A program made the translations under genes and the position numbers. Below are positions 2,341-22,404 of a stretch of DNA of 32,000 bases, piece after piece. Location: assembly GCA_041674405.1 (NCBI GenBank), contig JBAYVT010000001.1, positions 210,001 through 242,000 on the forward strand. Reading direction: 5' to 3'. The notes beneath the pieces are model-generated. The model had not been told where the DNA came from. It did not search any database and saw only the letters and a list, made by a program, of their open reading frames with translations. Source of the DNA: Patescibacteria group bacterium. GTDB lineage: Bacteria; Patescibacteriota; UBA1384; XYA2-FULL-43-10. The number at the start of each line of letters is the position of its first letter. Positions within the stretch are counted from its first letter, which is position 1.

Positions 2341-2379
2341 ATTAAAAAGAAACTCCCGCCCCCGGAAACCGGGGACGGG
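2341..2379 (-). terminator. intrinsic terminator of the GC-rich unit
   Basis: Hairpin cccgcccccgg-aaa-ccggggacggg (2355-2379). On the minus strand it is followed by aGTTTCTTTTT. Confidence 0.65.
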
Positions 2380-2403
2380 TGACGAAATTCGCGGGGACTC
2401 GGC

Positions 2404-2634
2404 CTAGAGGCCGGCAATCCCATTCGCCATTGCTGGCGAGAGGATGGTGTTGCCAGAGGATGACGCTTCGACGGAAGTTCCGCCACGCCATCGCTCTCCG
2501 GCAATGTGTTGGCCAACCCACATCGCGTGGGCAGCCTGCTGCTGCGGAGTGGGAGGGGAGCAAACCACGGCTCCCTTCGACCTCTGTCGGCGGAAGTACT
2601 CCTCCGCCTCTTCCCAAGCAGGGAAAATCAACAT
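2404..2634 (-). CDS. candidate 76-aa GC-rich orphan ORF (alternatively part of a structured ncRNA)
   Basis: ATG at 2634 is preceded by GGAGGTG with a 5-nt spacer. It sits 28 nt downstream of the predicted TSS, and the stop TAG lies 25 nt before the terminator. Product is MLIFPAWEEAEEYFRRQRSKGAVVCSPPTPQQQAAHAMWVGQHIAGERWRGG... with no family recognised. Five ORFs overlap here, so an open frame alone is weak evidence. Confidence 0.35.
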   Translation of the reverse strand: MLIFPAWEEAEEYFRRQRSKGAVVCSPPTPQQQAAHAMWVGQHIAGERWRGGTSVEASSSGNTILSPAMANGIAGL

Positions 2635-2668
2635 ATGCCACCTCCAGCGGAAGAGTAGTAACAAAAAT

Positions 2669-2697
2669 ACTCTACAATATATATTGTGATTTGTCAA
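2669..2697 (-). promoter_or_regulatory. sigma70-like promoter TTGACA-17-TAGAGT with a 14-nt palindrome in the spacer
   Basis: -35 is the rc of 2692-2697 and -10 is the rc of 2669-2674, with an exact 17-nt spacer. The spacer contains the perfect palindrome ACAATATATATTGT (2675-2688). Confidence 0.45.
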
Positions 2698-2863
2698 TAT
2701 TAAGGCAACAATATTTTTATTAATAATAAAGGCACAATAGAACGATAAAACAAAAAGTTATCCACAAAAATTGTAGAACGCAGGGATTAAACTACCACCA
2801 TCAATCAAAGAATAAATATTCCCTATTGCATAAAAATGAAGATATTAAACTGGAACTCGTTCG

Positions 2864-5800
2864 CTATGGATTTGTAACTGTGATAGGAGTAGTTGCAGAA
2901 GCAGTCACCCCAGCACTATCTTGGACTGTCACTTTGGCAGTATAGGTGCCGGCTGCAGTATATGTACAGACCCCGGATAGGGTTGGAGTGTCCTTAAGCA
3001 CTCTGACTGGAGTAGTGTTGCCAATCTTACAGTAGTAGGAGTAGGTCTTAGTGCCTGTGGCGCCACCGGTGACATTTGAGGTAAGGGCAACTGTTTGAGT
3101 ATTGTTTACAATCAAAGAGCTGGGAGTTGCATTGAGCGTTACGGCGAGAGATGCGGGAGGAGCAGCTGCTTGCGTTGTACAACGTATTGTCGTCGTCGCC
3201 ATTCTACCTGTAAGAATGTTGATTCCTGTTGGACGAGAGTTGACACACAATTTTCCAGTACCTCGCTGCCGAATTGAACTAATTAACTGGCTACCAGATG
3301 GGATATTTCGAATTATGAAGTAGCCTTGACCGTTTGTGATTGCGGCTTTCGGACCAATTTGGATGACGTAATTGGCGAGAATTGTTGAATCACTGGCGCT
3401 ACGCAGCGTCCCCTGGACCGATCCTAAATTTGTGATGTGTAGGGCTGCTAAAGCACTATCTGCCCAATTATTTAAGGTTTGAATGGCGGAAACTACGGTC
3501 GCCCGTACTGAGCTTATTACGGGAGCTAGAATTCTTTGATACTGAATACTTACTTTTTGAGATAACGGCAGTTTGTCGTAAGTACTCTGGATCCAAGAAC
3601 CATTAGAAATCTGGGCGTAGGTATATGGGATGCCGGTGACGCTTCCGCCAACCGATTTGAACACCTGGCCATCATCCGGGTCAACCCTACCGACATTGTC
3701 AGCAAACCATTGCCACATATACTTCATAATATTTTGGCACGTACCAGTAGTATGGTCTCTAATAATCCCATGAAGCCGTCCGTGCTGCATGAAATAAGCC
3801 CAGTAAAAGCTTGCAAAGAATTCATTATCATTGTCCCACGGGTGTCCTCCTGTATCCCCAGGCATCAGCTCAACATTCGAATCCGTTATCGCTCCCATCA
3901 CACAACCTTTATCCGGTCCAGCCATAACCCGGTTGTAAAGATCGTTCCATGGTGCATATATACTTGGAGTTGAATTCCTAATTTTCTCATTAACAGCGTG
4001 GCCGTACTCATGGGCGATGGTAGCGCCAACATCAGCACCGGTCGGGTCTGAAGCCAGTGAAAAGTCTAAAAGCTCGGTAGAAAAAATGATCGGCTTCACG
4101 TCTTTGCCAATTTTAGCGCAATTCCACATGCCGTTCCACTGGTATCCTTCAATTTTTCCCATTGGCAGGAAGCCAATCACAACAGGGCGGACATCCTTAG
4201 ATTGTGACTTTAACCTACGGAGTGATTGTGCCGCTTCATCGAAAATTGAGCTATGCTGCCCATATATAGTCTTGGGCTTGAATATCATATAAATACCATC
4301 GCCGTAATCTTTTAATAAACTGTTGTCATCAGGGCTGCAAAGGTCTTCGACATCACCGAGACGAGTCCAGTTATCATAGCCTGGAGTAAATTCTACCGGC
4401 GGGGACTTGGCGTTGTGCTTATTTATTCCCACGCGGTATGTGCCAGCGCTTGTCGGAACAAATTTGGCTGTTTCTTCTCCAAAATCATTGACGGCCAGAA
4501 AAGCCTTGTCGGCTGTCTTTGACCACGATCCGTCGGCAGTTTTCTTTTCCAGATAAAGGTCAGTATAATCGCAATCCTTGAAGTAGTCGTAGTTATAGAC
4601 ATATATTCCCGCCTGAGCTTCCAGGGCGGGGGCCTTTTGAAGAGTTAGGACGATGACCTTTGGTTGTTGTGTTTCGACGTCTTTTTCGACCACGGCGGTT
4701 GTATGTAGGAGTTTATATCCCTGTTTCAACACCATGAGATCCAGCGGCTGTCCCTCGGCAAACCCTTGAGGCACAATCCCGGCAGGGGGAGAAATTGGCG
4801 TCCTGTTGGGCTGCAAATAGCTCGAATAACTCTCGTAAAGGCTAAAATCGTTTTTTAATTTTAAATCGAGACCAGAAGACGATGTTCCAATGTAAGCGGC
4901 ATCTGTGAATCCGAGATTGGAAAAATAGTAGTTGTTAAGCTTATTTACCACAGTGGCCCCCGCAATTCTTTTACCACTCTCGTCAATAACTTTAATCGGT
5001 ACGGGCGAAAACTCAGATTGGCCGGTGTCTAATAGCATCAATAGATTCCTGGCGGCAAAATCTTTCTGTTGATCGAGGGTCAGCGAAAAATAATTTTGCG
5101 GTATTGTGAAACTTTGGGTTTTGGAAGCGCCATTTTTTGTTGCTTTGGCAGTATAGGTTTTCCCTAATTCAAACGAAAAATTTGCCTTCCCTAACCAGTC
5201 GGTAATTTTTGTTTGAACGACACCTTGGCCGTTTAGCGTAACTTCGGCGTCACCGATGGCTTTAAGTGTTTTGGAGTCAGCCACCATAATCGAGGCCGGT
5301 AGACCTGATGTTATATATTTTTGCAAAGAAAGTGTAATAGAAATCTTGCCCGTAAGTCCTACATCAAGCGTGATACGGCTTGAAGAGTTTTGCAGATATC
5401 CAGTTTTGAAGGCATCAACAGTCAGGACACCGGTGACATTTGTAAAGGATGCATACCCAGAAGTGTCAGTATTTTTCGATATAGGATTTTCGTCAGAAAT
5501 ATTCCTTCGCACATTAACCTGAGCAGCGACGATTGGTTTACTATCTTGATCCAAAACCTGAACTTTTATTTCGCGATCAAGTGTCTGCGCCCTTTGCAAA
5601 TTTACAATAGTTTCGTCTCCTCGCGTGTTGGGATAGCCAATAAAATCGTAGTAACCCACCTTTGTGACCTTGATCATCGGTACTGGAGCACATCCGTGAA
5701 ACTTCCACGCCAAATAATCGAAAATATCCTGGCTGTAAAAGTACGCTTTTCCCTGGGGATCCGTTATCTTGGAGGGCACATTCAGGTAGCTACATCCACG

Positions 5801-7612
5801 ATCAAAGACGGTCACTTGAGCGCCGAGCACGGGGGAGGTTGGGTAAGTTCCGTCTTTCACTGCCACCTTGATGCCAAGATAATATATATCAAGCGATAGA
5901 TCAGGAAGAGTGATTACGCCGTTTATAATCTCCGACTTCCTGAAGATTCTAATAGAGTCAGTATTATTTAGAAATTTCAAATATCCCGGAATCGTATAGG
6001 TTACTTTGTAGCTATCGGAGCTAATGGGAATATCTGCAATCTTGTAATTCGCGCCGTTGTTTGCATCAATCGAAGCCGCTTGAGATGTTGTGTTAAAGTG
6101 CTTATCGGTGCCAGAAAGCTGGATATCAACTCCAATTCCGCTAATTAATTCTCCAGTACCTTTCATCACAACTCTGCCTTGTGCCTTAAAGGTATTGGGC
6201 TCTGTTGCGGCGGGATCCGCTACGACTTGAGCGACTGCGGTCGCTCCGAGAACATCCCTCTCAATAATAACTTTGGGCTTAAACGTACCGCTGTCCGTAT
6301 AGGTATGGCTGACCGTTTTGGTCAAATCCGTGACATTATCAAATTTAACCCCATATCTAGAATCAGCCGGATCACCGCAAACAGTAATAATACTGCTGAT
6401 AAAATTGCCCTGATTGTCACAATTCCACCAAAAAGTATAGTTCAAAGTCCCTGTAGCGGTCCCGGAAGCGGTTGCGGTCAATGTATCAGACAAAGGCGCC
6501 GTTCCTGAAGTTGGGGTGGCAGTCAATGTAGCATTGAGTGTGGGGGTTGTTGGATTTGGTGTTGGATCCGAGACCGTAACATTTACCGAACCAGAACCAG
6601 AACCGGCGGAGCTCGTGCAAGTCAGAGAATATATTGTGGTAGCCAAGGGAGAGATATTTGCACTGCCACTCAATGTATTATTCCACCACCCGCTTGGCGA
6701 TGCGGTACATAGACTGAGTGTTGCATTTGTTATTGTCCAAGTTAGTGATGTAGTTGTGCCCCTCTGCATCGTTACGGCGCTGGCACCGCCCGCTGTCTTA
6801 AGATTTACAATTGGCTTCGGAGAAGCCGTGCTTGCCATTATGAAATTTGCTTCCGAAGTAGCCCCGGAAGAAATAGTAACGGAACGGCTGGTGGGCTGAG
6901 AATTATATCCGGCCTTGTAGGCAGTCACAGTGTAATTACCGACAGGAATGTCTGAAATAGAATAATTGTAGAGCGTAGTACCGGAAGTAGTTGCAGTTTT
7001 GACGACAGTGGTTTGCAAGATATTTACCACATCGTTGGATCCCAGAACATTAATAGTTACACCATCCAGATTCTTTTGAACACCATCGACGTAAGATGTT
7101 ACTTGCCCATGCAATATTCCCATATTTGCGGAACAGGTAGCTGGGTCGACTTTTCCAACTTTAATAGTTGCGCTATTTCCGTATGTTCCCGGATCGTGCG
7201 TGCCCCAGGTGCCTTCCGGCGGTGGGCTATTATTCCATGCGCCGCTTTCATAGCCTAAAAAACCATAATTGGTCACTGACCAAACTCTCTGTCCTGACCA
7301 AGGATAATCGATAAGATTGATAGTGTGATTACTGTCCATTCGGTAATATACCCCCGGATTTCCTTCCGAGGTGTCGTTCGTCCCCGTATATGTATAATAC
7401 CCGTTAAATTCCGCTCTGCCGGCATTACATACTGTATATGTTTGTGGCCAAGCAGCTATTGTATCGGCCTTGATATGAAGAACATTAGCTAGCTTAGGAA
7501 AATATCCGAATTTGGCGGCTGCAATGGAGCCGGAAGCAAGAAGGACAAATACAAAAAGACCGGCGTAAAGTATTAGCTTGCGTTTTGAGATTTGTTTCAG
7601 GCGTTCGAACAT
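2864..7612 (-). CDS. giant secreted/surface multidomain protein with a zinc-metalloprotease HEXXH core
   Basis: 1582-aa ORF with a GAGGGG SD. It has an N-terminal signal anchor (LILYAGLFVFVLLASGSIAAA) and repeated carboxypeptidase-regulatory-like and Ig-like beta modules. PKD-like modules occur near both ends (TLNYTFWWNCDN..., TKTYSYYCKIG...). The HEXXH motif is ATIAHEYGHAV. Confidence 0.85.
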   Translation of the reverse strand: MFERLKQISKRKLILYAGLFVFVLLASGSIAAAKFGYFPKLANVLHIKADTIAAWPQTYTVCNAGRAEFNGYYTYTGTNDTSEGNPGVYYRMDSNHTINLIDYPWSGQRVWSVTNYGFLGYESGAWNNSPPPEGTWGTHDPGTYGNSATIKVGKVDPATCSANMGILHGQVTSYVDGVQKNLDGVTINVLGSNDVVNILQTTVVKTATTSGTTLYNYSISDIPVGNYTVTAYKAGYNSQPTSRSVTISSGATSEANFIMASTASPKPIVNLKTAGGASAVTMQRGTTTSLTWTITNATLSLCTASPSGWWNNTLSGSANISPLATTIYSLTCTSSAGSGSGSVNVTVSDPTPNPTTPTLNATLTATPTSGTAPLSDTLTATASGTATGTLNYTFWWNCDNQGNFISSIITVCGDPADSRYGVKFDNVTDLTKTVSHTYTDSGTFKPKVIIERDVLGATAVAQVVADPAATEPNTFKAQGRVVMKGTGELISGIGVDIQLSGTDKHFNTTSQAASIDANNGANYKIADIPISSDSYKVTYTIPGYLKFLNNTDSIRIFRKSEIINGVITLPDLSLDIYYLGIKVAVKDGTYPTSPVLGAQVTVFDRGCSYLNVPSKITDPQGKAYFYSQDIFDYLAWKFHGCAPVPMIKVTKVGYYDFIGYPNTRGDETIVNLQRAQTLDREIKVQVLDQDSKPIVAAQVNVRRNISDENPISKNTDTSGYASFTNVTGVLTVDAFKTGYLQNSSSRITLDVGLTGKISITLSLQKYITSGLPASIMVADSKTLKAIGDAEVTLNGQGVVQTKITDWLGKANFSFELGKTYTAKATKNGASKTQSFTIPQNYFSLTLDQQKDFAARNLLMLLDTGQSEFSPVPIKVIDESGKRIAGATVVNKLNNYYFSNLGFTDAAYIGTSSSGLDLKLKNDFSLYESYSSYLQPNRTPISPPAGIVPQGFAEGQPLDLMVLKQGYKLLHTTAVVEKDVETQQPKVIVLTLQKAPALEAQAGIYVYNYDYFKDCDYTDLYLEKKTADGSWSKTADKAFLAVNDFGEETAKFVPTSAGTYRVGINKHNAKSPPVEFTPGYDNWTRLGDVEDLCSPDDNSLLKDYGDGIYMIFKPKTIYGQHSSIFDEAAQSLRRLKSQSKDVRPVVIGFLPMGKIEGYQWNGMWNCAKIGKDVKPIIFSTELLDFSLASDPTGADVGATIAHEYGHAVNEKIRNSTPSIYAPWNDLYNRVMAGPDKGCVMGAITDSNVELMPGDTGGHPWDNDNEFFASFYWAYFMQHGRLHGIIRDHTTGTCQNIMKYMWQWFADNVGRVDPDDGQVFKSVGGSVTGIPYTYAQISNGSWIQSTYDKLPLSQKVSIQYQRILAPVISSVRATVVSAIQTLNNWADSALAALHITNLGSVQGTLRSASDSTILANYVIQIGPKAAITNGQGYFIIRNIPSGSQLISSIRQRGTGKLCVNSRPTGINILTGRMATTTIRCTTQAAAPPASLAVTLNATPSSLIVNNTQTVALTSNVTGGATGTKTYSYYCKIGNTTPVRVLKDTPTLSGVCTYTAAGTYTAKVTVQDSAGVTASATTPITVTNP

Positions 7613-7724
7613 ATCCCCTCAAACTTAAAATCAGCTGAACCGTGATTCTATATGTATTATTGTAAACCCGAAATTAATATTTTGGAATAGTGGAGTATAA
7701 TTTAAAAAATCAATTGGAGAAAAA

Positions 7725-8255
7725 ATGACCAGGGAAATTGTTTTCCGAAGATTGACCAAAAAGGAATCAGAAATACTAACAAACGAAGTTAGAAACACTC
7801 CGAATATTGTGGCAGTGCCGATCAATCGCTGGAGATCATTTGATAAGATGTTCGTATTTGAAGATGAAAAAGGGATAGGCGGTGTCTGCGCCTTGGATTA
7901 TTTTGGCAAAGATTGGGCGGAAATTGCCGACTTTATTGTTCTCCCCCGCCTTCGCGGCAAAGGAATTGGCAGAAAATTGTTCGATAAAGCGTTCGGGTAT
8001 TTAAAGATTCATCAGTATAATATTTATATTGTGAGCAGAAATCCGTTAGTGATTGGGATGATGGAAAAAGCCGTTTTTAATATATATCAAAACTTTTTCC
8101 AGATGCCATGGCCGGTGATCTGGCATTCGACCAAGAAAACGTTAAATCTGGCTGTAATGACCGAATTTGTACGGAAATTATTCGTTTTCAGGAAAAAAAC
8201 ATCCTTAGTATATGGAATATTAAGAAAGGAAGATTATGGGAAAAACTTGGACTGA
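7725..8255 (+). CDS. GNAT family N-acetyltransferase
   Basis: Acetyl-CoA binding motif A is present (VLPRLRGKGIGRKLFDKA). 176 aa, with a GGAGA SD upstream. Confidence 0.8.
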   Translation: MTREIVFRRLTKKESEILTNEVRNTPNIVAVPINRWRSFDKMFVFEDEKGIGGVCALDYFGKDWAEIADFIVLPRLRGKGIGRKLFDKAFGYLKIHQYNIYIVSRNPLVIGMMEKAVFNIYQNFFQMPWPVIWHSTKKTLNLAVMTEFVRKLFVFRKKTSLVYGILRKEDYGKNLD

Positions 8256-8694
8256 AAAATTGCATGATTCAAAAGACTTGCCAAAAACGGGAAAGCTGAA
8301 CAAAAATGCCCGGATCCATTGGCATGGCGATACGATGACGGTGCCAGCACCGCTCGAGGTTGATGAAATAATGAAAAAAGTGCCGAAGGGCAAGATCATT
8401 ACGATCAATGAAATCAGGCAGAAGATCGCAAAAAAGCATGGCTCAGATATCGCCTGTCCCCTAACATGCGGGATTTTTTCCTGGATTGCTGCCCACGCCG
8501 CTGAGGAACAACGCGAAGAGGGCAAAAAGAACATCACGCCGTGGTGGAGAACATTGAAATCCGACGGATCGCTCAATCCCAAATTCCCCGGTGAATGCGA
8601 TCTTCAGAAAAAGATCCTTGAGGACGAAGGTTTTACGATCAAGAAACGAGGTAAAAAGTATTTCGTCGAAGATTTTGAAAAATATTTGGCCTAA
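8236..8694 (+). CDS. MGMT/alkyltransferase-like (ATL) family DNA-binding protein
   Basis: VPKGKIITINEIRQKIA...G....ITPWWRTLKSDGSLN resembles the MGMT DNA-binding domain, with PWWR replacing the catalytic PCHR. It overlaps the GNAT gene by 20 nt, consistent with an operon. Confidence 0.55.
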   Translation: MGKTWTEKLHDSKDLPKTGKLNKNARIHWHGDTMTVPAPLEVDEIMKKVPKGKIITINEIRQKIAKKHGSDIACPLTCGIFSWIAAHAAEEQREEGKKNITPWWRTLKSDGSLNPKFPGECDLQKKILEDEGFTIKKRGKKYFVEDFEKYLA

Positions 8695-8728
8695 ACCTTT
8701 CATCGCAACTAATTCCAATAATAGTCTC

Positions 8729-8762
8729 AAATGCTTTAATACGTGCAGTATAAAGCATTTTT
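8729..8762 (+). terminator. intrinsic terminator after the ATL-like gene
   Basis: aaatgcttta(a)tac-gtgca-gtataaagcattt hairpin followed by tt. Confidence 0.6.
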
Positions 8763-8775
8763 AACAATTTGGGGC

Positions 8776-8806
8776 TAAAAATCAAGAACCCGCCGGGGAG
8801 GGCGGG
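8776..8806 (-). terminator. intrinsic terminator of the GC-rich 388-aa gene
   Basis: cccgcc-ggggag-ggcggg hairpin (8789-8806). On the minus strand it is followed by ttcttgattttt. Confidence 0.6.
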
Positions 8807-8883
8807 AACTTGGATACTTCTTCGGAGCGTGGAGCTCCAATTTGAGATTCGTGGAAAGAGGTACCCCGAAAAGCAGGATGGAC

Positions 8884-10050
8884 TTAGCCGGCCTTCAGGA
8901 CCCTAGGCGGGTCATTGGCGAAGTAGTCGGGAGCCTCATTGATCAGGCAGCGAATGCCCGCGTAGTACCATGCTCCATATCGGTATAGCGGTTTCTCACT
9001 AATGACGACCTGGTCGTCACCCACAAGATCCGTTATTACTTGCTGAAGCTCTGGCTCCCCTCCACTCATGACCACTCTGCCGTCCGCGGTCTGATAGACG
9101 CCCATAGCCAGTGGATGGTGGATTCGTTTGATCCGATGGAACTCGATGCCAGCGCGTATGGCCCGACGACGACACTCACGAAGCGTCGAATCAGGGTTGT
9201 ACTTTGGCGGTTTTCTCTGTCCCTGGAAGCCAGACCAGATCAAGGGGTCAGCAAGCAGGTGCAAGCCACCTCGACGGTCTTCAATTACGGCGAAGAACCG
9301 ATCGATGTGGTTGTCGGCGCCATAGCCCATCTTGCTCGCTTGTCCATCCAGGAAGGTAGCTGATACTTCCGGGAGTTCGAGCACTGCCATTCCCAGATCC
9401 TTGAGTGGCTGTATCGGCGGCGGTTTGAGCTCATAGCGATCTTCTCCCAACGCCTTCAACGTTTCTGGTCCAGGCATTTCGACCTTGTCGAACACAACTG
9501 CCAAAGACTGCCTGAAGAGTATCCGGCCGCCTTCGCCGTAGATACTGTCGACAACGTTGTTCTTTTCCACCCAAGCCGGATCGACGACCCGGCTATGTCG
9601 CGGATCGAGCACAGCTTGGAAGCGGTGCCAGCTCAGGTCCATCATCACCGTGCCATTCGGCAGCATGGTCCACAGGTCCCGAGGGAACCCTTGAACCAAG
9701 ATGTCAATGTCCGGGAAGTTGATGGTCGGGAAAGGGCCACTCTTCATCGCATCGAAATACTGCTGGCCCAGAAGCTCCCTAAAGGCTAGCATCACCATGG
9801 GAGTCAAACCTGCCGCAGCCAGCATGGAATAGATCAGGGCCCATTCTTCCGCAGCTTCCTGAGCCATTCCCCGGAGAATCCCCATGAATTCGGGGTCTTT
9901 GGCGGGAAGAGCATAGCTGCGGCCCGGGACTAAACTGTACCGGGAAAACGTTGGAAGCGGGTACGGCGCAAACCGCTCGTCTTGCCCATACGGTCTCGTC
10001 TTGTAGACGTTTGATACGGCAAAATGCGGCAAGCCATAAACGTGAATCAC
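8884..10050 (-). CDS. GC-rich orphan protein, about 388 aa, no recognisable family
   Basis: The long ORF in the track is 8884..10128. The preferred start is GTG at 10050, preceded by AAGGAGG with an 8-nt spacer. A candidate promoter TTGTGG-17-TACTAT lies at 10083-10111 (rc). The ORF is strongly GC-rich compared with its flanks. Confidence 0.6.
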   Translation of the reverse strand: MIHVYGLPHFAVSNVYKTRPYGQDERFAPYPLPTFSRYSLVPGRSYALPAKDPEFMGILRGMAQEAAEEWALIYSMLAAAGLTPMVMLAFRELLGQQYFDAMKSGPFPTINFPDIDILVQGFPRDLWTMLPNGTVMMDLSWHRFQAVLDPRHSRVVDPAWVEKNNVVDSIYGEGGRILFRQSLAVVFDKVEMPGPETLKALGEDRYELKPPPIQPLKDLGMAVLELPEVSATFLDGQASKMGYGADNHIDRFFAVIEDRRGGLHLLADPLIWSGFQGQRKPPKYNPDSTLRECRRRAIRAGIEFHRIKRIHHPLAMGVYQTADGRVVMSGGEPELQQVITDLVGDDQVVISEKPLYRYGAWYYAGIRCLINEAPDYFANDPPRVLKAG

Positions 10051-10206
10051 GCAGATGCCCTCCTTTCGGGCTTCGCTTTGGGATAGTACGGCTACATTTG
10101 GATTACCACAATTTTTAGAAAATAGCAAGGCTGGTTAAGTTCAAAATTATTTACGCTGCGTTTTCCAAAATATTTTATTTATCCACTTCCAAAGCGAAAA
10201 AAGTAT

Positions 10207-10235
10207 TTGACAAAAATATTTCATTAGTGTACAAT
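10207..10235 (+). promoter_or_regulatory. sigma70-like promoter TTGACA-17-TACAAT for the RRM gene
   Basis: -35 at 10207-10212 and -10 at 10230-10235, with an exact 17-nt spacer. It predicts a leader of about 100 nt. Confidence 0.6.
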
Positions 10236-10340
10236 ATTACCAAGTTTGAGAGTGTAGGTGTGCTAAGAACTTTCGTTCAAATCCCCCGAGACAATCAAGC
10301 GGGTCGATTTAATTATCGCTTAGGAAAGCGAACTGAAAAC

Positions 10341-10640
10341 ATGGATCAAGAAGTTGAAAAGAGCAACAAGCTCTATGTAGGAAATCTTCCCTACAATGTA
10401 GATGATCAGCCTTTCCGTGATGAACAGCTTAAAGCAATCTTCGCCGAAGCCGGCGAGGTTTCTGAAGCTACCGTTATCACAGAGAGAGAAACTGGTCGTT
10501 CTAAAGGGTTCGGATTCGTCACTTATGCTGACGAAGCCACAGCCACCAAGGCTTTGGAAGAACTCAATGGAAAAGAAATTGGCGGCAGAGAATTAAGAAT
10601 TTCTTATGCCCGACCAATGCGCGAGAGAGAAGACAGATAA
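10341..10640 (+). CDS. RNA-binding protein with a single RRM domain
   Basis: RNP-2 (LYVGNLPY) and RNP-1 (KGFGFVTY) motifs are present. ATG 10341 is chosen because the track start at 10227 lies inside the predicted promoter. Confidence 0.85.
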   Translation: MDQEVEKSNKLYVGNLPYNVDDQPFRDEQLKAIFAEAGEVSEATVITERETGRSKGFGFVTYADEATATKALEELNGKEIGGRELRISYARPMREREDR

Positions 10641-10661
10641 TTTCGTCTACTTGACGCGAAT

Positions 10662-10703
10662 AAAAGCAAAAATCCCCCAAAGGGGGATTTTTGCTTTTAT
10701 AAT
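10662..10703 (+). terminator. intrinsic terminator after the RRM gene
   Basis: 17-bp stem aaaagcaaaaatccccc-aaa-gggggatttttgctttt followed by a T-rich tail. Confidence 0.8.
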
Positions 10704-10731
10704 TGATTTTTTACGCCCAGTGCGTTAGTAT
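10703..10731 (+). promoter_or_regulatory. sigma70-like promoter TTGATT-17-TAGTAT of GC-rich unit c
   Basis: -35 at 10703-10708 and -10 at 10726-10731, with a 17-nt spacer. It sits exactly at the AT-to-GC composition boundary. Confidence 0.45.
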
Positions 10732-10820
10732 TGCGGTGCTCGCAGCAAGGCAACTTTCCAGTCCGGATCTGGCCGCCCCTCACGAAAATTCAACCGCCTA
10801 TGGCGGAGGAGGAGCTGACC

Positions 10821-11174
10821 ATGACAAAGAGCTGGAGAATATTGCTAGAAGGTTTCGAGGCACTCGAGGAAAAAGTCCATCATGCGTTGTTCGAAGTCGC
10901 AGCAGCGCAAGAGGACGCAGATGCGGGATGGGACTCGTGGCTAGAGTGGGAAGAACTCGCGAAGCAGGTCCGGCGCGCAGCGCACGCCCGGGACCTCTCG
11001 ATAGACGAGTTTGACTCGCTTTGCCGCACGGCCCGTCGGTACCAGAACAAGAGAGTGCATGACCTCTGCGTCGCACTCGAGATCGAGAGTTTCGCAGAGG
11101 AAGACGGCACCATGATCTGGGAGCAGTTTTGTGCTTTAGTTGGCAAACTCGAGCACCTGGCGCCAAGCCCGTAG
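10821..11174 (+). CDS. GC-rich orphan protein, about 117 aa, predicted helical and acidic
   Basis: ATG 10821 is preceded by GGAGGAGGAG with a 6-nt spacer. ATG 10800 is an alternative start, and the track ORF begins at 10731 inside the promoter. Product is MTKSWRILLEGFEALEEKVHHALFEVAAAQEDADAGWDSWLEWEELAKQVRR... with no family recognised. Confidence 0.5.
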   Translation: MTKSWRILLEGFEALEEKVHHALFEVAAAQEDADAGWDSWLEWEELAKQVRRAAHARDLSIDEFDSLCRTARRYQNKRVHDLCVALEIESFAEEDGTMIWEQFCALVGKLEHLAPSP

Positions 11175-11202
11175 GGAGCTCCGAGCCTTCAACGAGCGAG
11201 TC

Positions 11203-11240
11203 GGGCGGTCTGATGCATGGACCGCCCACAATTTATTTTA
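11203..11240 (+). terminator. intrinsic terminator of GC-rich unit c
   Basis: gggcggtc-tgatgcatg-gaccgccc hairpin followed by acaatttatttta. Confidence 0.6.
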
Positions 11241-11243
11241 GAC

Positions 11244-12011
11244 CTATTTCTTTAAGTTCTCACTCGACATAAACTTTTTGATGTCATTGATCGTAGACAT
11301 GAATTGGGCAGGAAAAATGATCGTGGAATTTTTCTCTGTCGAAATTTCAGATAGGACTTGAAGGTTTCGAAGCTGCAGTGCAATTGGGTGTTTATTGATA
11401 ATATCAGCAGCTTTACCAAGTTTGTCCGCCGATTGAAATTCGCCTTCGGCAGCGATAATTTTTGCTCTTTTCTCCCTTTCAGCTTCTGCCTGTTTTGCCA
11501 TCGCTCTCTGCATCGTATCAGGAAGTTGAATATCTTTGATCTCAACAGTTGTTACAATCACGCCCCAAGCTTCTGTATGGCTATCGATAATTTTTTTGAT
11601 TTTTTGGTTAATTTTGTCCGTGTCAGAAAGAACCTCATCAAGTGAAAATTGGCCCACGATATTTCTCACGGTCGTTTGGGCAATCTGGTTTACCGCCGCA
11701 TAAACATTTTGGACGGCAACGATCGATTTGGTTGCATCTACCACATGGTAATAAGCCACGGCTGCCACATCAATCGAAACATTATCGCGCGTGATAATTT
11801 TCTGGGATTGAACCGGCATTGTAATTATCTGTAGAGAAATTTTGTAAAGTCGATCAATAATCGGAATAATCATCCGAATTCCTGGCTCTTTTTCTCCTAT
11901 CACCCGCCCAAGCCTAAACCAGACTCCCCGTTCATATTGCTGAACTACCCGCAATGCCGCAGCGATTAATATCACCGCAATCCCGATCACATACCACCAT
12001 ACTATGCTCAT
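11244..12011 (-). CDS. SPFH/band-7 (stomatin/slipin-like) membrane protein
   Basis: N-terminal TM helix followed by [14 protein letters not shown]... and a C-terminal coiled-coil [17 protein letters not shown], which is typical of the SPFH domain. Confidence 0.85.
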
Positions 12012-12129
12012 TTTTTCCTTTCGTTATTGATTAAAATGTAGTGCTAGTTTAGAAAAATTGCAATAGGCAGGACAACTAGAACAATCGCTTCGGCTTGGGT
12101 ATAATACGGAAAGACAAAAGAAAGGAATT

Positions 12130-13062
12130 ATGGCGAAAGTAATCGAAGTAAAAAATTTGTCCAAAAAGTACGGACCGCTTGTTGCGGTTGATGGAATCAA
12201 TTTTAGTGTTGAAAAGGGTGAAATTTTTGGTCTTTTGGGTGAAAATGGAGCCGGTAAGACGACAACACTTGAGATGATTGAGGGGTTAAGGAAACCATCT
12301 AGCGGAGAAATCAAAGTGCTTGGCCATGATTCGCAGAGTGAAATTGCCGAGATTAAGAATAGGATTGGAGTCCAGCTCCAGTCATCAGCATATTTCAGCT
12401 TTTTAAATCTAAGAGAAATTCTTGATCTTTTTGGTGGGTTTTATCCGAAGAGAATCGCCACGGATGAGCTTCTTTCCATGGTCCGGCTCAGGGAAAAATC
12501 AAAAGACTTCGTCGGCAACCTCTCTGGCGGACAGAAGCAAAGATTCTCGATTATTGCTAGCCTCATAAATGATCCCGATGTGGTTTTTCTTGATGAGCCA
12601 ACCACCGGCCTCGACCCTCTGGCGCGCCGAAACCTCTGGGATATTATTCTGAAAATCAAGTCGCAAGGAAAAACAATAATTCTGACCACTCATTACATGG
12701 AGGAAGCAGAAAAACTTTGCGACCGAATTGCAATCATGGAGAGAGGAAAAATTCTCGCTATTGGCACGGTCCACGAACTCATCTTGAAGGTAAATAATCC
12801 ATTCAGAATTCAATTTGTCGCCGCTGGTATTCCAGCAAACATTGAAAAAAACATTCGCGGATGCTGTGGAGAATTCGTGAAATTCGATGGCAAAACTGAC
12901 CATTACGAGTTGCAGCTTAAAAATCGCAAGGATTTAAAAACTGCTCTATCAGAGATTGAAAAAATAAATTACGAAGATTTACTGGTAACGCGAGCATCAC
13001 TTGAAGAATTATTTATCGAGCTTACAGGAAAAGCGATTGAGGACGAGGAGGCAAATGCTTAG
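12130..13062 (+). CDS. ABC transporter ATP-binding protein (ABC-2 type exporter)
   Basis: Walker A (GENGAGKTT), signature (LSGGQKQR) and Walker B (VVFLDEPTTGLD) motifs are present. Confidence 0.9.
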   Translation: MAKVIEVKNLSKKYGPLVAVDGINFSVEKGEIFGLLGENGAGKTTTLEMIEGLRKPSSGEIKVLGHDSQSEIAEIKNRIGVQLQSSAYFSFLNLREILDLFGGFYPKRIATDELLSMVRLREKSKDFVGNLSGGQKQRFSIIASLINDPDVVFLDEPTTGLDPLARRNLWDIILKIKSQGKTIILTTHYMEEAEKLCDRIAIMERGKILAIGTVHELILKVNNPFRIQFVAAGIPANIEKNIRGCCGEFVKFDGKTDHYELQLKNRKDLKTALSEIEKINYEDLLVTRASLEELFIELTGKAIEDEEANA

Positions 13063-14137
13063 ATTATTTATCGCAGACCTGAAAATGCTGGTCCGGAATC
13101 GACAGGCGCTTTTTTGGAGCTTGATGTTTCCGCTGATGTTTACAATAATTTTTGGCTTCTTTTTTGGCGGGTCAACCATCGCCGGCACAATTGGCTTGAT
13201 CAACAATTCGAACACACAGATAGCGCAGGGTCTAGTTTCTGCACTCAAGGGAACCGACTTACTCAAAGTCCAGGACGAGAGCGATTTGAACACAGCCAAA
13301 GATTTGATCAAGAAAAACACAATTTCTGCGGTCGTCGTGATTCCTCAAGGTTTTGGGGATATCACCCCCGATTCACCAAGACAAGTTGATGTTATTTACG
13401 ACCCCGGATCGCAACAGCTTGTGGCAATTATTAATTCTTTTCTGAATACTTATCTTACCAATGTAAATTATTCCGTTCAGAATGCTAAACCGATTTTTTC
13501 CGTTAATGCCCAGGCAATAAATTCGGAGAGAAAGTTAAATTACTTCGATTTTGTTCTTGCTGGAATCCTCGGGATGGCAATCATGCAATCCTCCATTATC
13601 GGCGTTTCTATTGCCATCAGCACTTACAGGCAGGAAAAAATACTAAAGCGCATAACCACCACCCCGATTAAGACATGGCAATTTATCATCGCCGAAGTTT
13701 TATCGCGTTTAGTGGTAAATTTAATTCAAGTTGCCCTCGTTCTGGCGCTTGGCGTTTATGCATTTCACGGACATATTTATGGAAATATCTTCGAAATTTT
13801 CGGCATCGCTCTTTTGGGTGCCCTTCTATTTCAGATGATCGGTTTTGTGGTTGCCAGCTTTGCCAAAACCGCCGATGCGGCGCAAGGGATGGCAACCGCT
13901 ATCGGAATCCCGATGATGTTTCTAGCCGGCGTATTTTTTCCGATCGATTCTTTGCCCAAGTGGCTTTACTCTGTTGTCCAATATCTGCCACTTGCACCAC
14001 TTCTCAGAATCCTGCGCACTGTGGCCCTTGAAGCTGGCTCGGCTTTTCAAAACCCAGTGAATATGGCAATCGTCGGTGCCTGGATTGTCGTATGTTTGGC
14101 ACTTTCGCTCTGGAGATTTCGCCTATCAGAAGAATAG
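13055..14137 (+). CDS. ABC-2 family transporter permease
   Basis: ATG 13055 follows a GAGGAGG SD and overlaps the ATPase stop. The protein is polytopic (MLRLFIADLKMLVRNRQALFWSLMFPL...), the typical ABC-2 partner. Confidence 0.8.
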   Translation: MLRLFIADLKMLVRNRQALFWSLMFPLMFTIIFGFFFGGSTIAGTIGLINNSNTQIAQGLVSALKGTDLLKVQDESDLNTAKDLIKKNTISAVVVIPQGFGDITPDSPRQVDVIYDPGSQQLVAIINSFLNTYLTNVNYSVQNAKPIFSVNAQAINSERKLNYFDFVLAGILGMAIMQSSIIGVSIAISTYRQEKILKRITTTPIKTWQFIIAEVLSRLVVNLIQVALVLALGVYAFHGHIYGNIFEIFGIALLGALLFQMIGFVVASFAKTADAAQGMATAIGIPMMFLAGVFFPIDSLPKWLYSVVQYLPLAPLLRILRTVALEAGSAFQNPVNMAIVGAWIVVCLALSLWRFRLSEE

Positions 14138-14236: not shown

Positions 14237-14440
14237 ATGGATCCAGAAGAGACACAAGAAGAAACAACCCCTGTTGAGGGTGGCGAAGCTGAAGGCACTG
14301 AGGCTCCAGCAGCACCAGAAGCGAATGCAGAAGGTGGAGAAGAATCAGAACTCGGTGCACCAGCCGACGAAGAAGCTCCAAAAGCTCCAGAGACGGGAGC
14401 CGAAGGCGAAAGTGAAGAAGAACCACCAGCCACAGAGTAA
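14237..14440 (+). CDS. small highly acidic, low-complexity (E/P/A/G/T-rich) protein
   Basis: ATG 14237 is preceded by GAGGAGG with an 8-nt spacer; the track start is 14201. The 67-aa product is MDPEETQEETTPVEGGEAEGTEAPAAPEANAEGGEESELGAPADEEAPKAPETGAEGESEEEPPATE, and a strong terminator follows. Confidence 0.45.
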   Translation: MDPEETQEETTPVEGGEAEGTEAPAAPEANAEGGEESELGAPADEEAPKAPETGAEGESEEEPPATE

Positions 14441-14451
14441 TTCAATTGAAC

Positions 14452-14489
14452 AATAAGAAAAATCAGGCCTTGGCCTGATTTTTCTTATT
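14452..14489. terminator. bidirectional intrinsic terminator between convergent genes
   Basis: Perfect 18-bp inverted repeat aataagaaaaatcaggcc/ggcctgatttttcttatt with A/T runs on both sides. Confidence 0.8.
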
Positions 14490-14500
14490 GTAAATATAAT

Positions 14501-15130
14501 TTATTCTGCGCTTGTATCTGTTGATATTTTGGAAACGACCACATCAAACATGTGTGTTCCGGAGGAAACAATATACATCGAAATATCGCCTTTATCAAAA
14601 TATGCACTGAACGAATCGCTTGTGTTGTAGTTCGCCGTTTTGGTATAGCCGGCATTTACAAAAGCATTTTCTATGTCTGAATATTTTGAGGCATTGACTT
14701 CATTTTTTGTAGTATAATACAGCGTTGCACTATCCGTTGCCGATGACCAAAGCGAAAGTTTTGCTCCGCCAAACAAATTGGTAAGTATTGGCTTGATTTC
14801 CGCATTAACAGAAATCGACAAGGAATCAGACGGAGTAACTTCTTGAACCTGTGAATAATCATTGGTATCAGTGCCAATATTTGTAGTGTCAGTGTTCACA
14901 CCGGTGGTGTCTTTGATCACATCCGACACTGCATTGTGGACTCTATTTTTGACAAAACGATAAATTCCATAACTAATTCCGCCACCCACAACTACAAGGA
15001 CGAGTACCACAATCAGGATAATCAATCCTACATTTGTTTTTTTCTTGGCTGGTGCGGCCTGTGTCGGCTGCGGCGCTGCCGTTTGCGCTGGTGCTGGCGC
15101 CTCAGGAGTATTTTTTTGATCCTCTGGCAT
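14501..15130 (-). CDS. single-pass membrane-anchored protein, unknown function
   Basis: Pro/Ala-rich N-terminus, one TM helix (VGLIILIVVLVLVVVGGGISYGIY) and an extracytoplasmic Ser/Thr/Asn-rich domain. Confidence 0.6.
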   Translation of the reverse strand: MPEDQKNTPEAPAPAQTAAPQPTQAAPAKKKTNVGLIILIVVLVLVVVGGGISYGIYRFVKNRVHNAVSDVIKDTTGVNTDTTNIGTDTNDYSQVQEVTPSDSLSISVNAEIKPILTNLFGGAKLSLWSSATDSATLYYTTKNEVNASKYSDIENAFVNAGYTKTANYNTSDSFSAYFDKGDISMYIVSSGTHMFDVVVSKISTDTSAE

Positions 15131-15802: not shown

Positions 15803-15807
15803 GCGTT

Positions 15808-16119: not shown

Positions 16120-16184
16120 TTAATCTCCTTTTTAATAGTAATCGATATTATAGCACAGCTTGAAATTAGTGCTAAGATAATTGT

Positions 16185-17064: not shown

Positions 17065-17088
17065 ATAGTACAAACTTAATTATCATTT

Positions 17089-17958: not shown

Positions 17959-17969
17959 GAATGATTTCT

Positions 17970-18131: not shown

Positions 18132-18274
18132 GCCCGGATTATAGCACGAAAAATGATCGAAAAAGATCCCTTCCGAATCCCATATTATTGCAAGACCAGG
18201 AAAAACAACCACCAAAAGTCGGAGAAAAAAAGATGGCGATATTATTATGATAGAAATAAGTTTATGATTAAATC

Positions 18275-20142: not shown

Positions 20143-20169
20143 TGATTTCAACAATTAAAAGGGAATAAT

Positions 20170-20195
20170 AAAAACACCAATTTGTTGGTGTTTTT
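20170..20195. terminator. intrinsic terminator (bidirectional A/T tails)
   Basis: aaaaacaccaa-tttg-ttggtgttttt. Confidence 0.75.
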
Positions 20196-20199
20196 ATTA

Positions 20200-20218
20200 T
20201 GGTTCGGGGATAGGGATT
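20200..20218 (-). repeat. 19-nt duplicate of the tRNA-Gln 3' end (T-stem 3' strand, acceptor 3' strand and CCA)
   Basis: tggttcggggatagggatt is identical to 20372-20390. The sequence upstream of it cannot be folded into a cloverleaf. Confidence 0.8.
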
Positions 20219-20371
20219 TCGGGCATTCGCGCTGCTCACTTCTAAAAACCCTCGGTTTTTAGTGTTTTCCGCCAGCGGGAGACCAATTGTTCTCCCGACC
20301 CCTCTCTCGTCCGAACCCCATATATAACCACCCAAAAGAAAAACGACCACCAAAAGGTGATCATTTTTCTT

Positions 20372-20445
20372 TGGTTCGGGGATAGGGATTCGGACCCCAA
20401 TTCTTTGGACCAAAACCAAATGTCCTGCCATTAGACGATCCCCGA
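20372..20445 (-). tRNA. tRNA-Gln (anticodon UUG), CCA encoded
   Basis: The rc reads TCGGGGA TC GTCT AATGGCA GGAC A TTTGG TTTTGGT CCAAA GAAT TGGGG TCCGAAT CCCTA TCCCCGA ACCA. This is a 74-nt cloverleaf with a U1:A72 pair. A weak terminator, gatcacc-tttt-ggtggtc plus T-run, lies just downstream (20345-20362). Confidence 0.85.
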
Positions 20446-20621
20446 ATATCAAATTCTAATCCAAAACCCAGCTCCCAAACTTATCGTTTGCAAGCATTAG
20501 CATACCCGAAATCACTCGCATTTTCAACTAAAACACCCCAGCGTAAGCCGAGGTGTTACCCATTACAGGTCTCCCTGAATTGGGCCATAATTTGCGTTCG
20601 CTGGGGCTGTTTTAGGCTTTA

Positions 20622-20940
20622 TGAAGCATCCAATAAGCCGGGTTTTGTATAACGATAGCAATCTATCTACGCGTGGAGACCGCAGGTCACCTTCCGAGTC
20701 GGAATTGATGTCAGGCGGTCCACTCCACTTGCACCGAGCTAGGCTTGCCACAGACGCACATTGCTGTACGAACGCGTGAGCTCTTACCTCACGATTTCAA
20801 CCTTACCGGTCTTGCGACTTAGGCGGTATATTTTCTGTTGCGCTGTTCTCAGAGCTTTCACCCTGCTTGTTTTCACAAGCGCTCCACTCTGCGGTGCCCG
20901 GACTTTCCTCCCTTGCGGGTAGCTATCTAGAATGCTTTTA
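20622..20940 (-). ncRNA. rnpB: RNase P RNA (bacterial type, reduced)
   Basis: The rc of 20896-20911 is GGAGGAAAGTCCGGGC (P4 5' strand) and the rc of 20633-20648 is ACAAAACCCGGCTTAT (P4 3' strand). P1 pairs AAGCATTC (20930-20937) with GGATGCTT (20624-31). P2 pairs GATAGC with GCTATC. P3 is a minimal CCC-GCAA-GGG hairpin. Confidence 0.8.
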
Positions 20941-20950
20941 AAGCATTAAT

Positions 20951-20979
20951 ATTGTATCCGAAAATGACCAAAAAGTCAA
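20951..20979 (-). promoter_or_regulatory. sigma70-like promoter TTGACT-17-TACAAT for rnpB
   Basis: -35 is the rc of 20974-20979 and -10 is the rc of 20951-20956, with an exact 17-nt spacer. The TSS is predicted a few nt upstream of P1. Confidence 0.55.
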
Positions 20980-21006
20980 TGTTTAAGGGTTGGAACTCAC
21001 AAAAAG

Positions 21007-21028
21007 ATTATCTTATATTAAAATATTT
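21007..21028 (+). repeat. left copy of the perfect 22-bp direct repeat ATTATCTTATATTAAAATATTT
   Basis: Identical to 22383-22404. Confidence 0.9.
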
Positions 21029-21064
21029 AAATTATAGGATATTGATACAAAATTTTAGTTTTAA

Positions 21065-21098
21065 CCGAAGGCGCCAGGCCGCAAGGCCTGGCGCTCGG
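21065..21098 (-). terminator. GC-rich GNRA-loop hairpin directly after the HD-MTase stop codon
   Basis: ccga(ag)gcgccaggcc-gcaa-ggcctggcgc-tcgg. On the minus strand it is followed by ttaaaactaaaatttt. Confidence 0.65.
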
Positions 21099-21104
21099 TG
21101 ATAC

Positions 21105-22211
21105 TTAGTTGGTTCGGCCGAAAATCAGCCGGAAGGCTTCCGGGTCAACGCACGGATAGCCAGAAAAGTCGAAGTCGTGGTCTTCTGCGATCAGCGAGAA
21201 GCCTGGGAGCATCGCTTCGATCTGTCGACTTGCGACCTCGATGCTGTCTGCACCATAGGTCGGCGTGTAGCTCTCGATGACCTCGAGTCGCCCATCGCTT
21301 AAAGACAATACTCGGAGGAGTTCCTGTGGGCTGAGCGCATCGGGGCAGCGTAGTGCTACGTTCGCCATCACGATATCGCCAGCATCATCCGGAATCGGCA
21401 GTGCGTCCGCCGTCCCGGGCAAGATAATCTCTGGGGCGGAGTTGCGCAGCTTGGCCGTCTCGACAGAAAGCACAGCCGCGACTTTGCGATCTGCCTGTGA
21501 GGGTTCGACGCCGATGATCAGCTCAAGCGGAGTATGTTTCCGAAAGAGGCTGATTGGCAGTCTGCCGGGCCCAATCTCTATAAGGACCTTTGGCTCCTCG
21601 CCGCGCTCCGCACAAAGCACACCGTAGTTGCGAATGATGTTTCTCGCTACATTGGTGTGCCATTCGCTGGCATGGTTCGTGCCCCAGTACTGGGGAGTGA
21701 GCCTGATCTCCGGCCAGAGATAGGCCACCATTCCATGGAGATTCGGCCAGAAGAAGTCCCAGCCACCCTCAAAGCCGAACTCGGCCGCGAGTTTGTCGAA
21801 GTCCTCGCGAAAATCCGAGTACGCGCCAGCCATCCGTGATAGGTCGGCAGCACGCAAGATTTTCGCCTCGACGGTGACCGGCATGACGCCAGCATTGGTA
21901 GGTTTGATCGCATCGATCACTGCGGCGATCATGTGCTCCAGGTAGCCAAGTTTCCGCATCTCCTCGGCAGCCACCTTGGCACTCAGCTCCTCAGGAGTCG
22001 AGCACCCGAATTCTCGCGGATCCTTGCCAAACAACGCATCATGGAAAAGCGCTGCCCAGACAAGGACCTCAATCGAGACGTGGATGCCGCAATGTCGGCA
22101 TCGTTCTGCAAGCATGAAGGCAGTTGCGCAGACCCCCTGAGCATGCCTCCAATTATGGTACGGCCGCATGGTGTAATACGGCCAAGCCAATTTCTCGATG
22201 AATCCCAGCAT
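21105..22211 (-). CDS. GC-rich HD-domain phosphohydrolase fused to a methyltransferase-like Rossmann domain
   Basis: ATG 22211 is preceded by AGGGGGA with a 5-nt spacer; the track start is 22232. The N-terminus has RPYHNWRHAQGV...AALFHDALFG (an H...HD metal site). The C-terminus has VLIEIGPGRLP and IIGVEPS...GDIVMANVAL, which resemble SAM-MTase motifs I and IV. A candidate promoter TTGGAT-17-GATAAT lies at 22282-22310 (rc). Confidence 0.7.
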   Translation of the reverse strand: MLGFIEKLAWPYYTMRPYHNWRHAQGVCATAFMLAERCRHCGIHVSIEVLVWAALFHDALFGKDPREFGCSTPEELSAKVAAEEMRKLGYLEHMIAAVIDAIKPTNAGVMPVTVEAKILRAADLSRMAGAYSDFREDFDKLAAEFGFEGGWDFFWPNLHGMVAYLWPEIRLTPQYWGTNHASEWHTNVARNIIRNYGVLCAERGEEPKVLIEIGPGRLPISLFRKHTPLELIIGVEPSQADRKVAAVLSVETAKLRNSAPEIILPGTADALPIPDDAGDIVMANVALRCPDALSPQELLRVLSLSDGRLEVIESYTPTYGADSIEVASRQIEAMLPGFSLIAEDHDFDFSGYPCVDPEAFRLIFGRTN

Positions 22212-22323
22212 CTTGGTCCCCCTTGTGTACAAGCCTGAATTTCGAGCAGTGCTAGATTAACACAAAAAACATGTTCCGTAAATTATCCAAACATTAGTAC
22301 ATCCATCCAAATCTTATTATTCC

Positions 22324-22367
22324 AAACGTAACAATTTCTCCGCGACCGCGGAGAAATTGTTACGTTT
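22324..22367. repeat. perfect 21-bp-stem hairpin (aaacgtaacaatttctccgcg-ac-cgcggagaaattgttacgttt)
   Basis: Read directly from the sequence. The T-run follows only on the plus strand, where no upstream plus-strand gene exists. It lies 15 bp inside the right 22-bp repeat. Confidence 0.7.
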
Positions 22368-22382
22368 TTATTTCTAAAACAA

Positions 22383-22404
22383 ATTATCTTATATTAAAAT
22401 ATTT
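22383..22404 (+). repeat. right copy of the perfect 22-bp direct repeat
   Basis: Identical to 21007-21028. Confidence 0.9.

Follow-up and report, generated by a model that had tools for sequence, protein, structure and literature searches.

Four GC-rich single-gene units in an AT-rich Patescibacteria chromosome, probably old and domesticated horizontal acquisitions

The stretch of DNA analyzed here (32,000 nucleotides [nt], hereafter the window) covers positions 210,001–242,000 of contig JBAYVT010000001.1 in assembly GCA_041674405.1, a metagenome-assembled genome (MAG) of the Patescibacteria, or candidate phyla radiation (CPR), and its proteins are deposited as NCBI MFA7243894–MFA7243911. It carries the host genes thrS, glyA, and thyX, genes for RNase HII, an RRM protein, and ABC transporters, the RNase P RNA, and two tRNAs. 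Four GC-rich blocks, named U1–U4, all lie between such ordinary host genes. They occupy 2341–2697 (U1, minus strand, GC 0.566), 8776–10111 (U2, minus strand, GC 0.556), 10703–11240 (U3, plus strand, GC 0.569), and 21029–22376 (U4, minus strand, GC 0.543 as measured over 21029–22382), while the GC of the window outside these segments was 0.410. A preliminary description of this DNA, made by eye, had reported four intergenic segments much richer in GC than their surroundings, and both the contrast (54–57% vs. 41%) and the intergenic placement were confirmed by computation. In a 300-nt profile, GC formed a plateau of 0.55–0.59 within the blocks and averaged 0.413 (standard deviation 0.045) outside them, where the peak, 0.547, fell on a tandem-repeat patch near 31141.

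The genes within the blocks were equally atypical. Compared with 29 host genes, the z-scores of gene GC were 6.2 for U1, 4.6 for U2, 4.9 for U3, and 5.0 for U4 (gene GC 0.576). GC at third codon positions (GC3) was 0.65–0.68 (U1 0.675, U2 0.647, U3 0.669, and U4 0.675) against 0.395 ± 0.063 in the host genes, corresponding to z-scores of 4.0–4.5, and GC at the first and second positions (GC1 and GC2) and amino acid usage were shifted too. The relative synonymous codon usage of U1–U4 correlated with that of the host at r = −0.07 to −0.20, compared with 0.58–0.72 for host genes, and tetranucleotide usage normalized for base composition gave r = 0.67, compared with 0.86 ± 0.05 for random sets of host segments. 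Sliding-window GC, tetranucleotides, and codons were all deviant. The composition of U1–U4 is foreign, far beyond the gene-to-gene variance in the window, and base composition and codon usage have the atypical character of genomic islets. Overlapping open reading frames (ORFs) of at least 80 amino acids (aa) on both strands, another feature noted earlier for all four segments, numbered 5, 2, 4, and 5 in U1–U4, respectively. A donor signature common to U2 and U4 was sought as well, and nothing beyond GC could be demonstrated (tetranucleotide r = 0.37 between the two; host–host 0.49).

Each block contains a single ORF with a Shine-Dalgarno (SD) sequence and a downstream GC-rich hairpin. The coding sequence (CDS) of U1 (2404–2634, minus strand, 76 aa) has the SD sequence GGAGGTGG, and both its promoter-like site, TTGACA-17-TAGAGT (2697–2669, minus strand), and its strong terminator hairpin with a T tract (2379–2355, minus strand) were called in the scans. 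U1 lies between a ZIP transporter gene and the gene of a 1582-aa surface protein. The start codon of the ZIP transporter gene is only about 30–40 nt downstream of the U1 terminator (2316–2355), with no evident SD sequence and scant space for a promoter, and the gene may thus need read-through or a leaderless start to be expressed. The CDS of U2 (8884–10050, minus strand, 388 aa) starts with GTG at 10050, preceded by AAGGAGGG; the searches reported below used 8884–10065, that is, 5 extra N-terminal residues. Its terminator hairpin (8806–8789, minus strand) was called in the scan, and its promoter, by eye TTGCTA-17-TAATCC, was below the scan threshold. The CDS of U3 (10821–11174, plus strand) encodes 117 aa, or 124 aa from an alternative start at 10800. 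A weak promoter-like sequence, TTGATT-17-TAGTAT (approximately 10704–10732, plus strand), was seen by eye below the scan threshold, the 5′ leader of about 90 nt is GC-rich, and the terminator hairpin (11203–11227, plus strand) was called.

The CDS of U4 (21105–22211, minus strand, 368 aa) has the SD sequence AAGGGGGA, a promoter region at approximately 22256–22310 (minus strand), and a terminator hairpin at approximately 21070–21096 (minus strand), which the terminator scan did not call because its T tract is weak. In homologous loci (L005, L104, and L103), the promoter, 5′ untranslated region, and terminator of U4 are conserved with compensatory changes in the stem, and therefore the expression signals are part of the unit and were inherited with the gene. 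The preliminary description had assigned every unit a promoter with an exact 17-nt spacer, a strong SD sequence, and an intrinsic terminator. The U1 promoter and the U1, U2, and U3 terminators agree with this wiring, whereas the U2 and U3 promoters and the U4 hairpin were not called; the essential point holds, namely that every block contains one real gene equipped with expression signals of its own.

U4 is bordered by further features. A perfect palindrome with 21-nt arms (22324–22367) lies upstream of its promoter, and a homologous hairpin with a compensatory G/C change was found in L104 (1332–1353) downstream of the U4 homologue, that is, on the opposite side of the gene. The whole unit is flanked by a direct repeat (ATTATCTTATATTAAAATATTT), whose two copies, spaced by 1376 nt, share 22 exact nt and are identical at 26 of 28 positions. 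Copy 1 (AAAAAGATTATCTTATATTAAAATATTT, 21001–21028) abuts the RNase P RNA promoter (TTGACT-17-TACAAT, 20979–20951, minus strand); copy 2 (22377–22404) lies 26 nt downstream of a short NUDIX gene and overlaps the promoter-like sequence TTGATA-17-GATAAT on the minus strand. The class A RNase P RNA gene itself (20619–20938, minus strand) is the host neighbor of U4, and tRNA-Gln (20372–20445) lies beyond it as seen from U4. The 3′ end of tRNA-Gln together with 8 downstream bases is repeated (24/27 identical, 20364–20390 and 20192–20218) 172 nt downstream of the tRNA, which is the att-like trace of an integrated element that has almost disappeared; no tRNA or Rfam call fell within the 145 nt separating the two copies.

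In agreement with the earlier statement that U2 has no recognizable family, it had no sequence match in Pfam, NCBIfam, or PDB, but that statement is now superseded by its predicted fold. With the AlphaFold model (pLDDT 72, pTM 0.76), the top Foldseek matches were DDAH, ArgZ, amidinotransferase, agmatine deiminase, and PPAD (probability 0.97–1.0), and the top 30 PDB matches were all pentein enzymes (probability 0.8–1.0, TM 0.3–0.5). The model has the five-fold beta/alpha propeller of the penteins. Residues D130, H253-x-D255, H310, and C373 were invariant among 9 homologues down to 24% identity, and they supply the C-terminal Cys, the His, and the acidic residues typical of penteins, with roles assigned by analogy. 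We take this D / H-x-D / C arrangement, and the roles of its residues, to be those of the agmatine deiminase and PPAD-type active sites. Judged from the model, U2 is a divergent homologue of the pentein-fold enzymes that modify guanidino groups, with a conserved candidate catalytic D / H-x-D / C set. It resembles DDAH, ArgZ, agmatine deiminase, PPAD, and the amidinotransferases in predicted fold, invariant Asp, His-x-Asp, and C-terminal Cys; it differs from known pentein enzymes in its identity of only 10–15% to solved structures, in a clade-specific N-terminal extension of about 55 residues, and in having no match to a curated sequence family. The family is an uncharacterized one of modest size (276 clusters at 50% identity in a profile search), in which the subclade of U2 has four members only, followed by a gap to at most 35% identity.

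The HD and methyltransferase motifs read by eye in U4 were both recovered by profile searches. Its N-terminus matched Pfam HD with 27.1 bits (cutoff 22) and contains the invariant H19, H23, H57, and D58 of an HD phosphohydrolase, and its motifs (YHNWxHA...HD) are like those of class I cyclic-nucleotide phosphodiesterases (PDEs). A profile match to PDB PDE10A (E about 1e-3) and Foldseek matches to PDE and HD structures, obtained from a low-confidence model (pLDDT 52), point in the same direction; unlike class I PDEs, U4 scored 18.6 bits for PDEase_I, below the cutoff of 24.8, and the second His of HDxxH is missing. The C-terminus, which had no Pfam match, resembles class I SAM methyltransferases through a profile match to the YcgJ methyltransferase (E 3.6e-4, residues 211–322, spanning EIGPG), and the methyltransferase-like part was modeled with pLDDT <50. 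U4 is thus a putative fusion of a class-I-PDE-like HD domain to a class-I methyltransferase-like domain, a rare combination for which 5.8 billion protein clusters yielded only 5 homologues. Searches of Pfam, PHROG, PADLOC, and NCBIfam gave no family match for U1 or U3. U1 is a singleton cluster, and its 76-aa gene was also called in the independent assembly L099; U3 has a single other homologue cluster (74% identity) among the 5.8 billion. Both are orphans as far as their sequences indicate.

The relatives of U2 and U4 were informative about the age of these genes. Values of dN/dS were 0.08 for U2 (window vs. L002) and 0.18 for U4 (window vs. L005), and on this sequence-based measure the two are shown to be real protein-coding genes under purifying selection. 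In L002 (about 78% DNA identity), the U2 orthologue adjoins the same RRM gene as in the window and its terminator is alignable. The divergence of U2 at four-fold sites was 0.50 (window vs. L002), compared with 0.36–0.64 for neighboring host genes, and that of U4 was 0.64 (window vs. L005), compared with 0.62 for a neighboring host gene; being close to those of the host neighbors, these divergences fit co-inheritance. Moreover, the window, L005 (55% identity), and L102 (35% identity) each carry a U4-family gene that follows thrS at a distance of 0.2–2.5 kb and in the same orientation. Both U2 and U4 were present in those diverged relatives that were examined. A recent arrival, as the wording of the preliminary description could suggest, is therefore not supported for U2 and U4, which occupy corresponding positions in diverged relatives under purifying selection. 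The description had set ancestral syntenic orthologues against a foreign origin; this applies in part, as U2 and U4 can be called ancestral in the clade, at least to some extent.

The homologues mostly remain richer in GC than the AT-rich sequence around them (homologue/flank GC of 0.61/0.43 in L001, 0.55/0.44 in L002, 0.59/about 0.45 in L005, and 0.56/0.39 in L104). In four of five AT-rich genomes, GC3 and GC at four-fold sites (GC4) of the U4 family were 0.63–0.72, down to 35% amino acid identity; the U4 homologue of L103 is nearly host-like (GC3 0.44). Homologues of U2 at 59% identity had a GC3 of 0.74, and distant ones (31–33% identity) had ordinary GC. Further GC-rich orphan genes were found beside the U4 and U2 homologues of L005 (2259–2867 and 4347–4805, both minus strand) and L001 (9901–10098, minus strand); they have a GC3 of 0.74–0.77 and a hairpin terminator each, and they are unrelated to U1 or U3. 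Polarized synonymous changes in U2 (31 from S to W vs. 15 from W to S) were considered as evidence and dropped, since a ratio of about 2.8:1 is already predicted from nothing more than a saturated GC-rich outgroup.

L002 (1496–1545) is without 3.1 kb of the window (10695–13837) comprising U3, a slipin gene, an ABC ATPase gene, and most of an ABC-2 permease gene, of which it keeps only a C-terminal remnant, and U3 is thus missing there through a deletion in the L002 lineage. With the slipin gene as an anchor, 80 loci were retrieved from GTDB species representatives, none of them syntenic, and the distribution of the slipin gene itself looked patchy among these representatives. With the ABC-2 permease as an anchor in metagenomes, relatives were 55–62% identical and had a different gene order, with no empty sites. 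In L091, L092 (2250–5190), and L095 (2250–5123), GC-rich islands (0.55–0.64) encode pseudopilin-like proteins with N_methyl and DUF1559 domains next to an ABC ATPase that is truncated; one cassette of L095 is replaced in L092 by an AT-rich segment with a 334-aa ORF that looks, by eye only, like an IS-type (DDE) transposase.

Based on these compositions, signals, and taxonomic distributions, we hypothesize that U1–U4 are single-gene islets that were acquired horizontally long ago, have since been domesticated, and probably derive from GC-richer Patescibacteria. They would be four independent accessory transcription units of foreign, GC-richer origin set in the intergenic spacers of an AT-rich CPR chromosome, each with the moron-like make-up of promoter, SD sequence, one ORF, and hairpin terminator. 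Horizontal transfer would have brought them into the lineage, most plausibly from GC-richer Patescibacteria, which are favored as the source because their genes have the same GC and GC3: in GC-richer Saccharibacteria loci (52–55% GC), gene GC was 0.54–0.57 and GC3 was 0.60–0.67. No homologue of U1–U4 was found in Saccharibacteria despite this compatible composition. In a survey of aquifer Patescibacteria, most of the detected transfers into the phylum came from other Patescibacteria (PMC12455944). They may have entered through the uptake of DNA and an insertion that was either illegitimate or site-specific in trans, of which the 22–28-nt repeats of U4 could be a trace; a clade of related CPR genomes would then have inherited the genes, probably re-exchanged them by means of homologous flanks, and retained them because their proteins are useful. 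The repeated acquisition and domestication of foreign single-gene cassettes proposed earlier is supported by these data. The alternative offered with it, a functionally linked set, is not, since nothing links the four genes and no common mobilization mechanism was seen, with repeats at U4 only; four separate acquisitions, rather than one system, appear likely.

The units can be compared with several known systems. Phage morons are independent promoter-gene-terminator insertions of atypical GC (PMC3594210), and U1–U4 resemble them in being single genes with their own promoter and terminator and a GC unlike that of the neighbors, inserted between otherwise adjacent genes; they differ in lying in a bacterial chromosome among housekeeping genes with no prophage context, in having no viral or PHROG relatives save weak HD matches for U4, and in being syntenically conserved in diverged genomes. 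Among the genes and genomic islands acquired by Patescibacteria (PMC12455944), U1–U4 find counterparts from the same phylum that are also atypical, accessory, and mostly without assigned function, and for which transfer within the Patescibacteria is the dominant route; those islands are multi-gene, whereas U1–U4 are single-gene units of 0.36–1.35 kb whose GC contrast persists in orthologues. U4 is like a tRNA-associated integrative island in its 22–28-nt direct repeat, its position about 0.6 kb from tRNA-Gln and adjoining the RNase P RNA, and the duplicated tRNA 3′ end nearby; it is unlike one in that it has no integrase, its repeat is not part of the tRNA, and the island has one gene, and U1–U3 differ further in having no repeats. 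Unlike integron gene cassettes, the four units have their own promoter-like sites, are dispersed, have no integrase in the window, and end in hairpins with short GC stems and T tracts.

Several observations weigh against such an acquisition. An empty site was recovered at none of the four loci, so that insertion is inferred and was not seen directly. The donor lineage was not found, and every close homologue with flanking sequence lies in AT-rich CPR-like contigs; the close clade of U2 has its 4 members and U4 its 5 homologues, with AT-rich flanks wherever they are present. No recombinase domain was detected by Pfam in the window, as the preliminary description had stated. U4 alone has repeats, and the flanks of U1–U3 gave only short AT-rich chance matches. 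If U4 had been inherited vertically since the ancestor of the window, L005, and L102, its GC4 should have decayed toward that of the host, and it is undecayed (0.63–0.69) at near-saturated synonymous divergence, except perhaps in L103. Finally, the U4 repeat is almost perfect, and this points to an event younger than the one suggested by the synteny. The undecayed GC3 and near-perfect repeat, together with the missing donor and empty site, would be compatible with GC that is actively maintained, or with recurrent exchange at hot spots that draws on a GC-rich pool.

A wider picture would be one in which a clade of AT-rich Patescibacteria has a pool of self-contained GC-rich modules that stay GC-rich even as synonymous sites saturate and recur at hot spots such as the region downstream of thrS that adjoins the RNase P RNA and tRNA-Gln. 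We regard this as unlikely. If it were true, there would have to be either an unrecognized GC-rich reservoir or vehicle with in-trans, repeat-generating insertion, to which the 22-nt repeats and the palindrome would belong, or a gene-specific maintenance of GC by selection or biased gene conversion.

Active maintenance can also be considered by itself. U1–U4 would then be long-resident, lineage-specific genes whose high GC is no leftover of recent transfer and is kept up by selection on the coding sequence or mRNA, or by GC-biased gene conversion at recombination hot spots. The persistence of high GC3/GC4 throughout most of the U4 family, the location downstream of thrS in three genomes with four-fold sites near saturation, and the still higher GC3 of the U2 homologues at 59% identity speak for it. 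On the other side, GC1, GC2, and amino acid usage are shifted too, as expected of genes that resided for long in a GC-rich genome, ordinary GC is seen in the distant U2 homologues of comparable genomes, and the L103 homologue of U4 is nearly host-like in GC3. We know of no mechanism that targets single genes in this way. The chance that maintenance accounts for the units appears low to us.

A similarly low probability attaches to U1–U4 being the cargo of mobile elements (prophage morons, a defense islet, or an integrative element whose integrase lies elsewhere) that target intergenic sites, for example at tRNA-Gln and RNase P. The moron-like architecture (PMC3594210), the 22/28-nt direct repeat around U4, the repeated tRNA-Gln 3′ end 172 nt away, the palindromic hairpin conserved with U4 in the window and L104, and the variable spot at which relatives have other GC-rich cassettes or an IS transposase are what such cargo might leave. 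However, searches of viral contigs (IMG/VR), phages (INPHARED), and plasmids (PLSDB) gave no relative of U2 or U4, U1–U4 had no PADLOC matches, and the only PHROG matches were weak ones of U4 to HD phosphohydrolases; after these searches, a phage, plasmid, or defense origin was rejected. The window and the adjacent 10 kb on its left side contained neither phage genes nor a recombinase domain, and U1–U3 are without repeats.

An artifact of assembly or binning, in which GC-rich reads of another organism were joined into a CPR contig, is very improbable. The source is a MAG and the composition boundaries are sharp, but these boundaries coincide with promoters and terminators and are not random points. 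Moreover, two other assemblies are identical through U1–U3 where they overlap: L099 (a Logan assembly, SRR6484325) is 100% identical over 1–10840 of the window, covering U1, U2, and the start of U3, and L100 (a JGI contig) over 1–2553. The diverged L002 has the same U2–RRM junction. The caution about chimeric assembly raised earlier is thus removed for U1–U3 by the identical independent assemblies and this junction, while for U4 it is answered through related loci that show the unit within AT-rich flanks. GC-rich blocks in AT-rich genomes are often structured RNA genes, and the ORFs on both strands of the blocks and the RNase P RNA adjoining U4 would fit this, but Rfam gave no match in any block either at the gathering score or at E ≤ 1, finding only the RNase P RNA and the tRNAs, and codon-position structure, SD sequences, conserved protein homologues, and low dN/dS refute structured non-coding RNA for U2 and U4 and make it scarcely credible for the blocks as a whole.

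As probable islets, U1–U4 bear on how CPR bacteria gain functions. With their tiny genomes, these bacteria are believed to rely on hosts and on the uptake of DNA. Delimited and selected single-gene acquisitions with portable promoters and terminators would show how such genomes add functions without the machinery of mobile elements. U2 and U4 define uncharacterized enzyme families, a predicted pentein-fold family of about 276 clusters and a rare putative fusion of a PDE-like HD domain and a methyltransferase, which may be relevant to the arginine/polyamine or nucleotide-signal metabolism of episymbionts. That the genes have not taken up the host composition in several lineages is a small, testable anomaly for models of amelioration. 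Overall, the case is best explained by a known process, horizontal gene acquisition, to which it adds new gene families and, as a modest anomaly, the persistent high GC in relatives.

Some other features of the window were recorded. An inverted repeat with 37-nt arms (14433–14508) between the convergent ABC-2 permease gene and a gene of 209 aa is probably a bidirectional terminator, and it yields spurious sub-threshold Rfam matches to miRNAs and sRNAs. A stand-alone ORF of 86 aa with a GIY-YIG nuclease domain (30428–30688) lies directly upstream of tRNA-Val. The highest GC outside U1–U4 has its source in a 30-nt tandem repeat of about 4 copies, 88–100% identical (31253–31401), inside a gene (30822–31694, minus strand) that fuses HTH and HSP20 domains.

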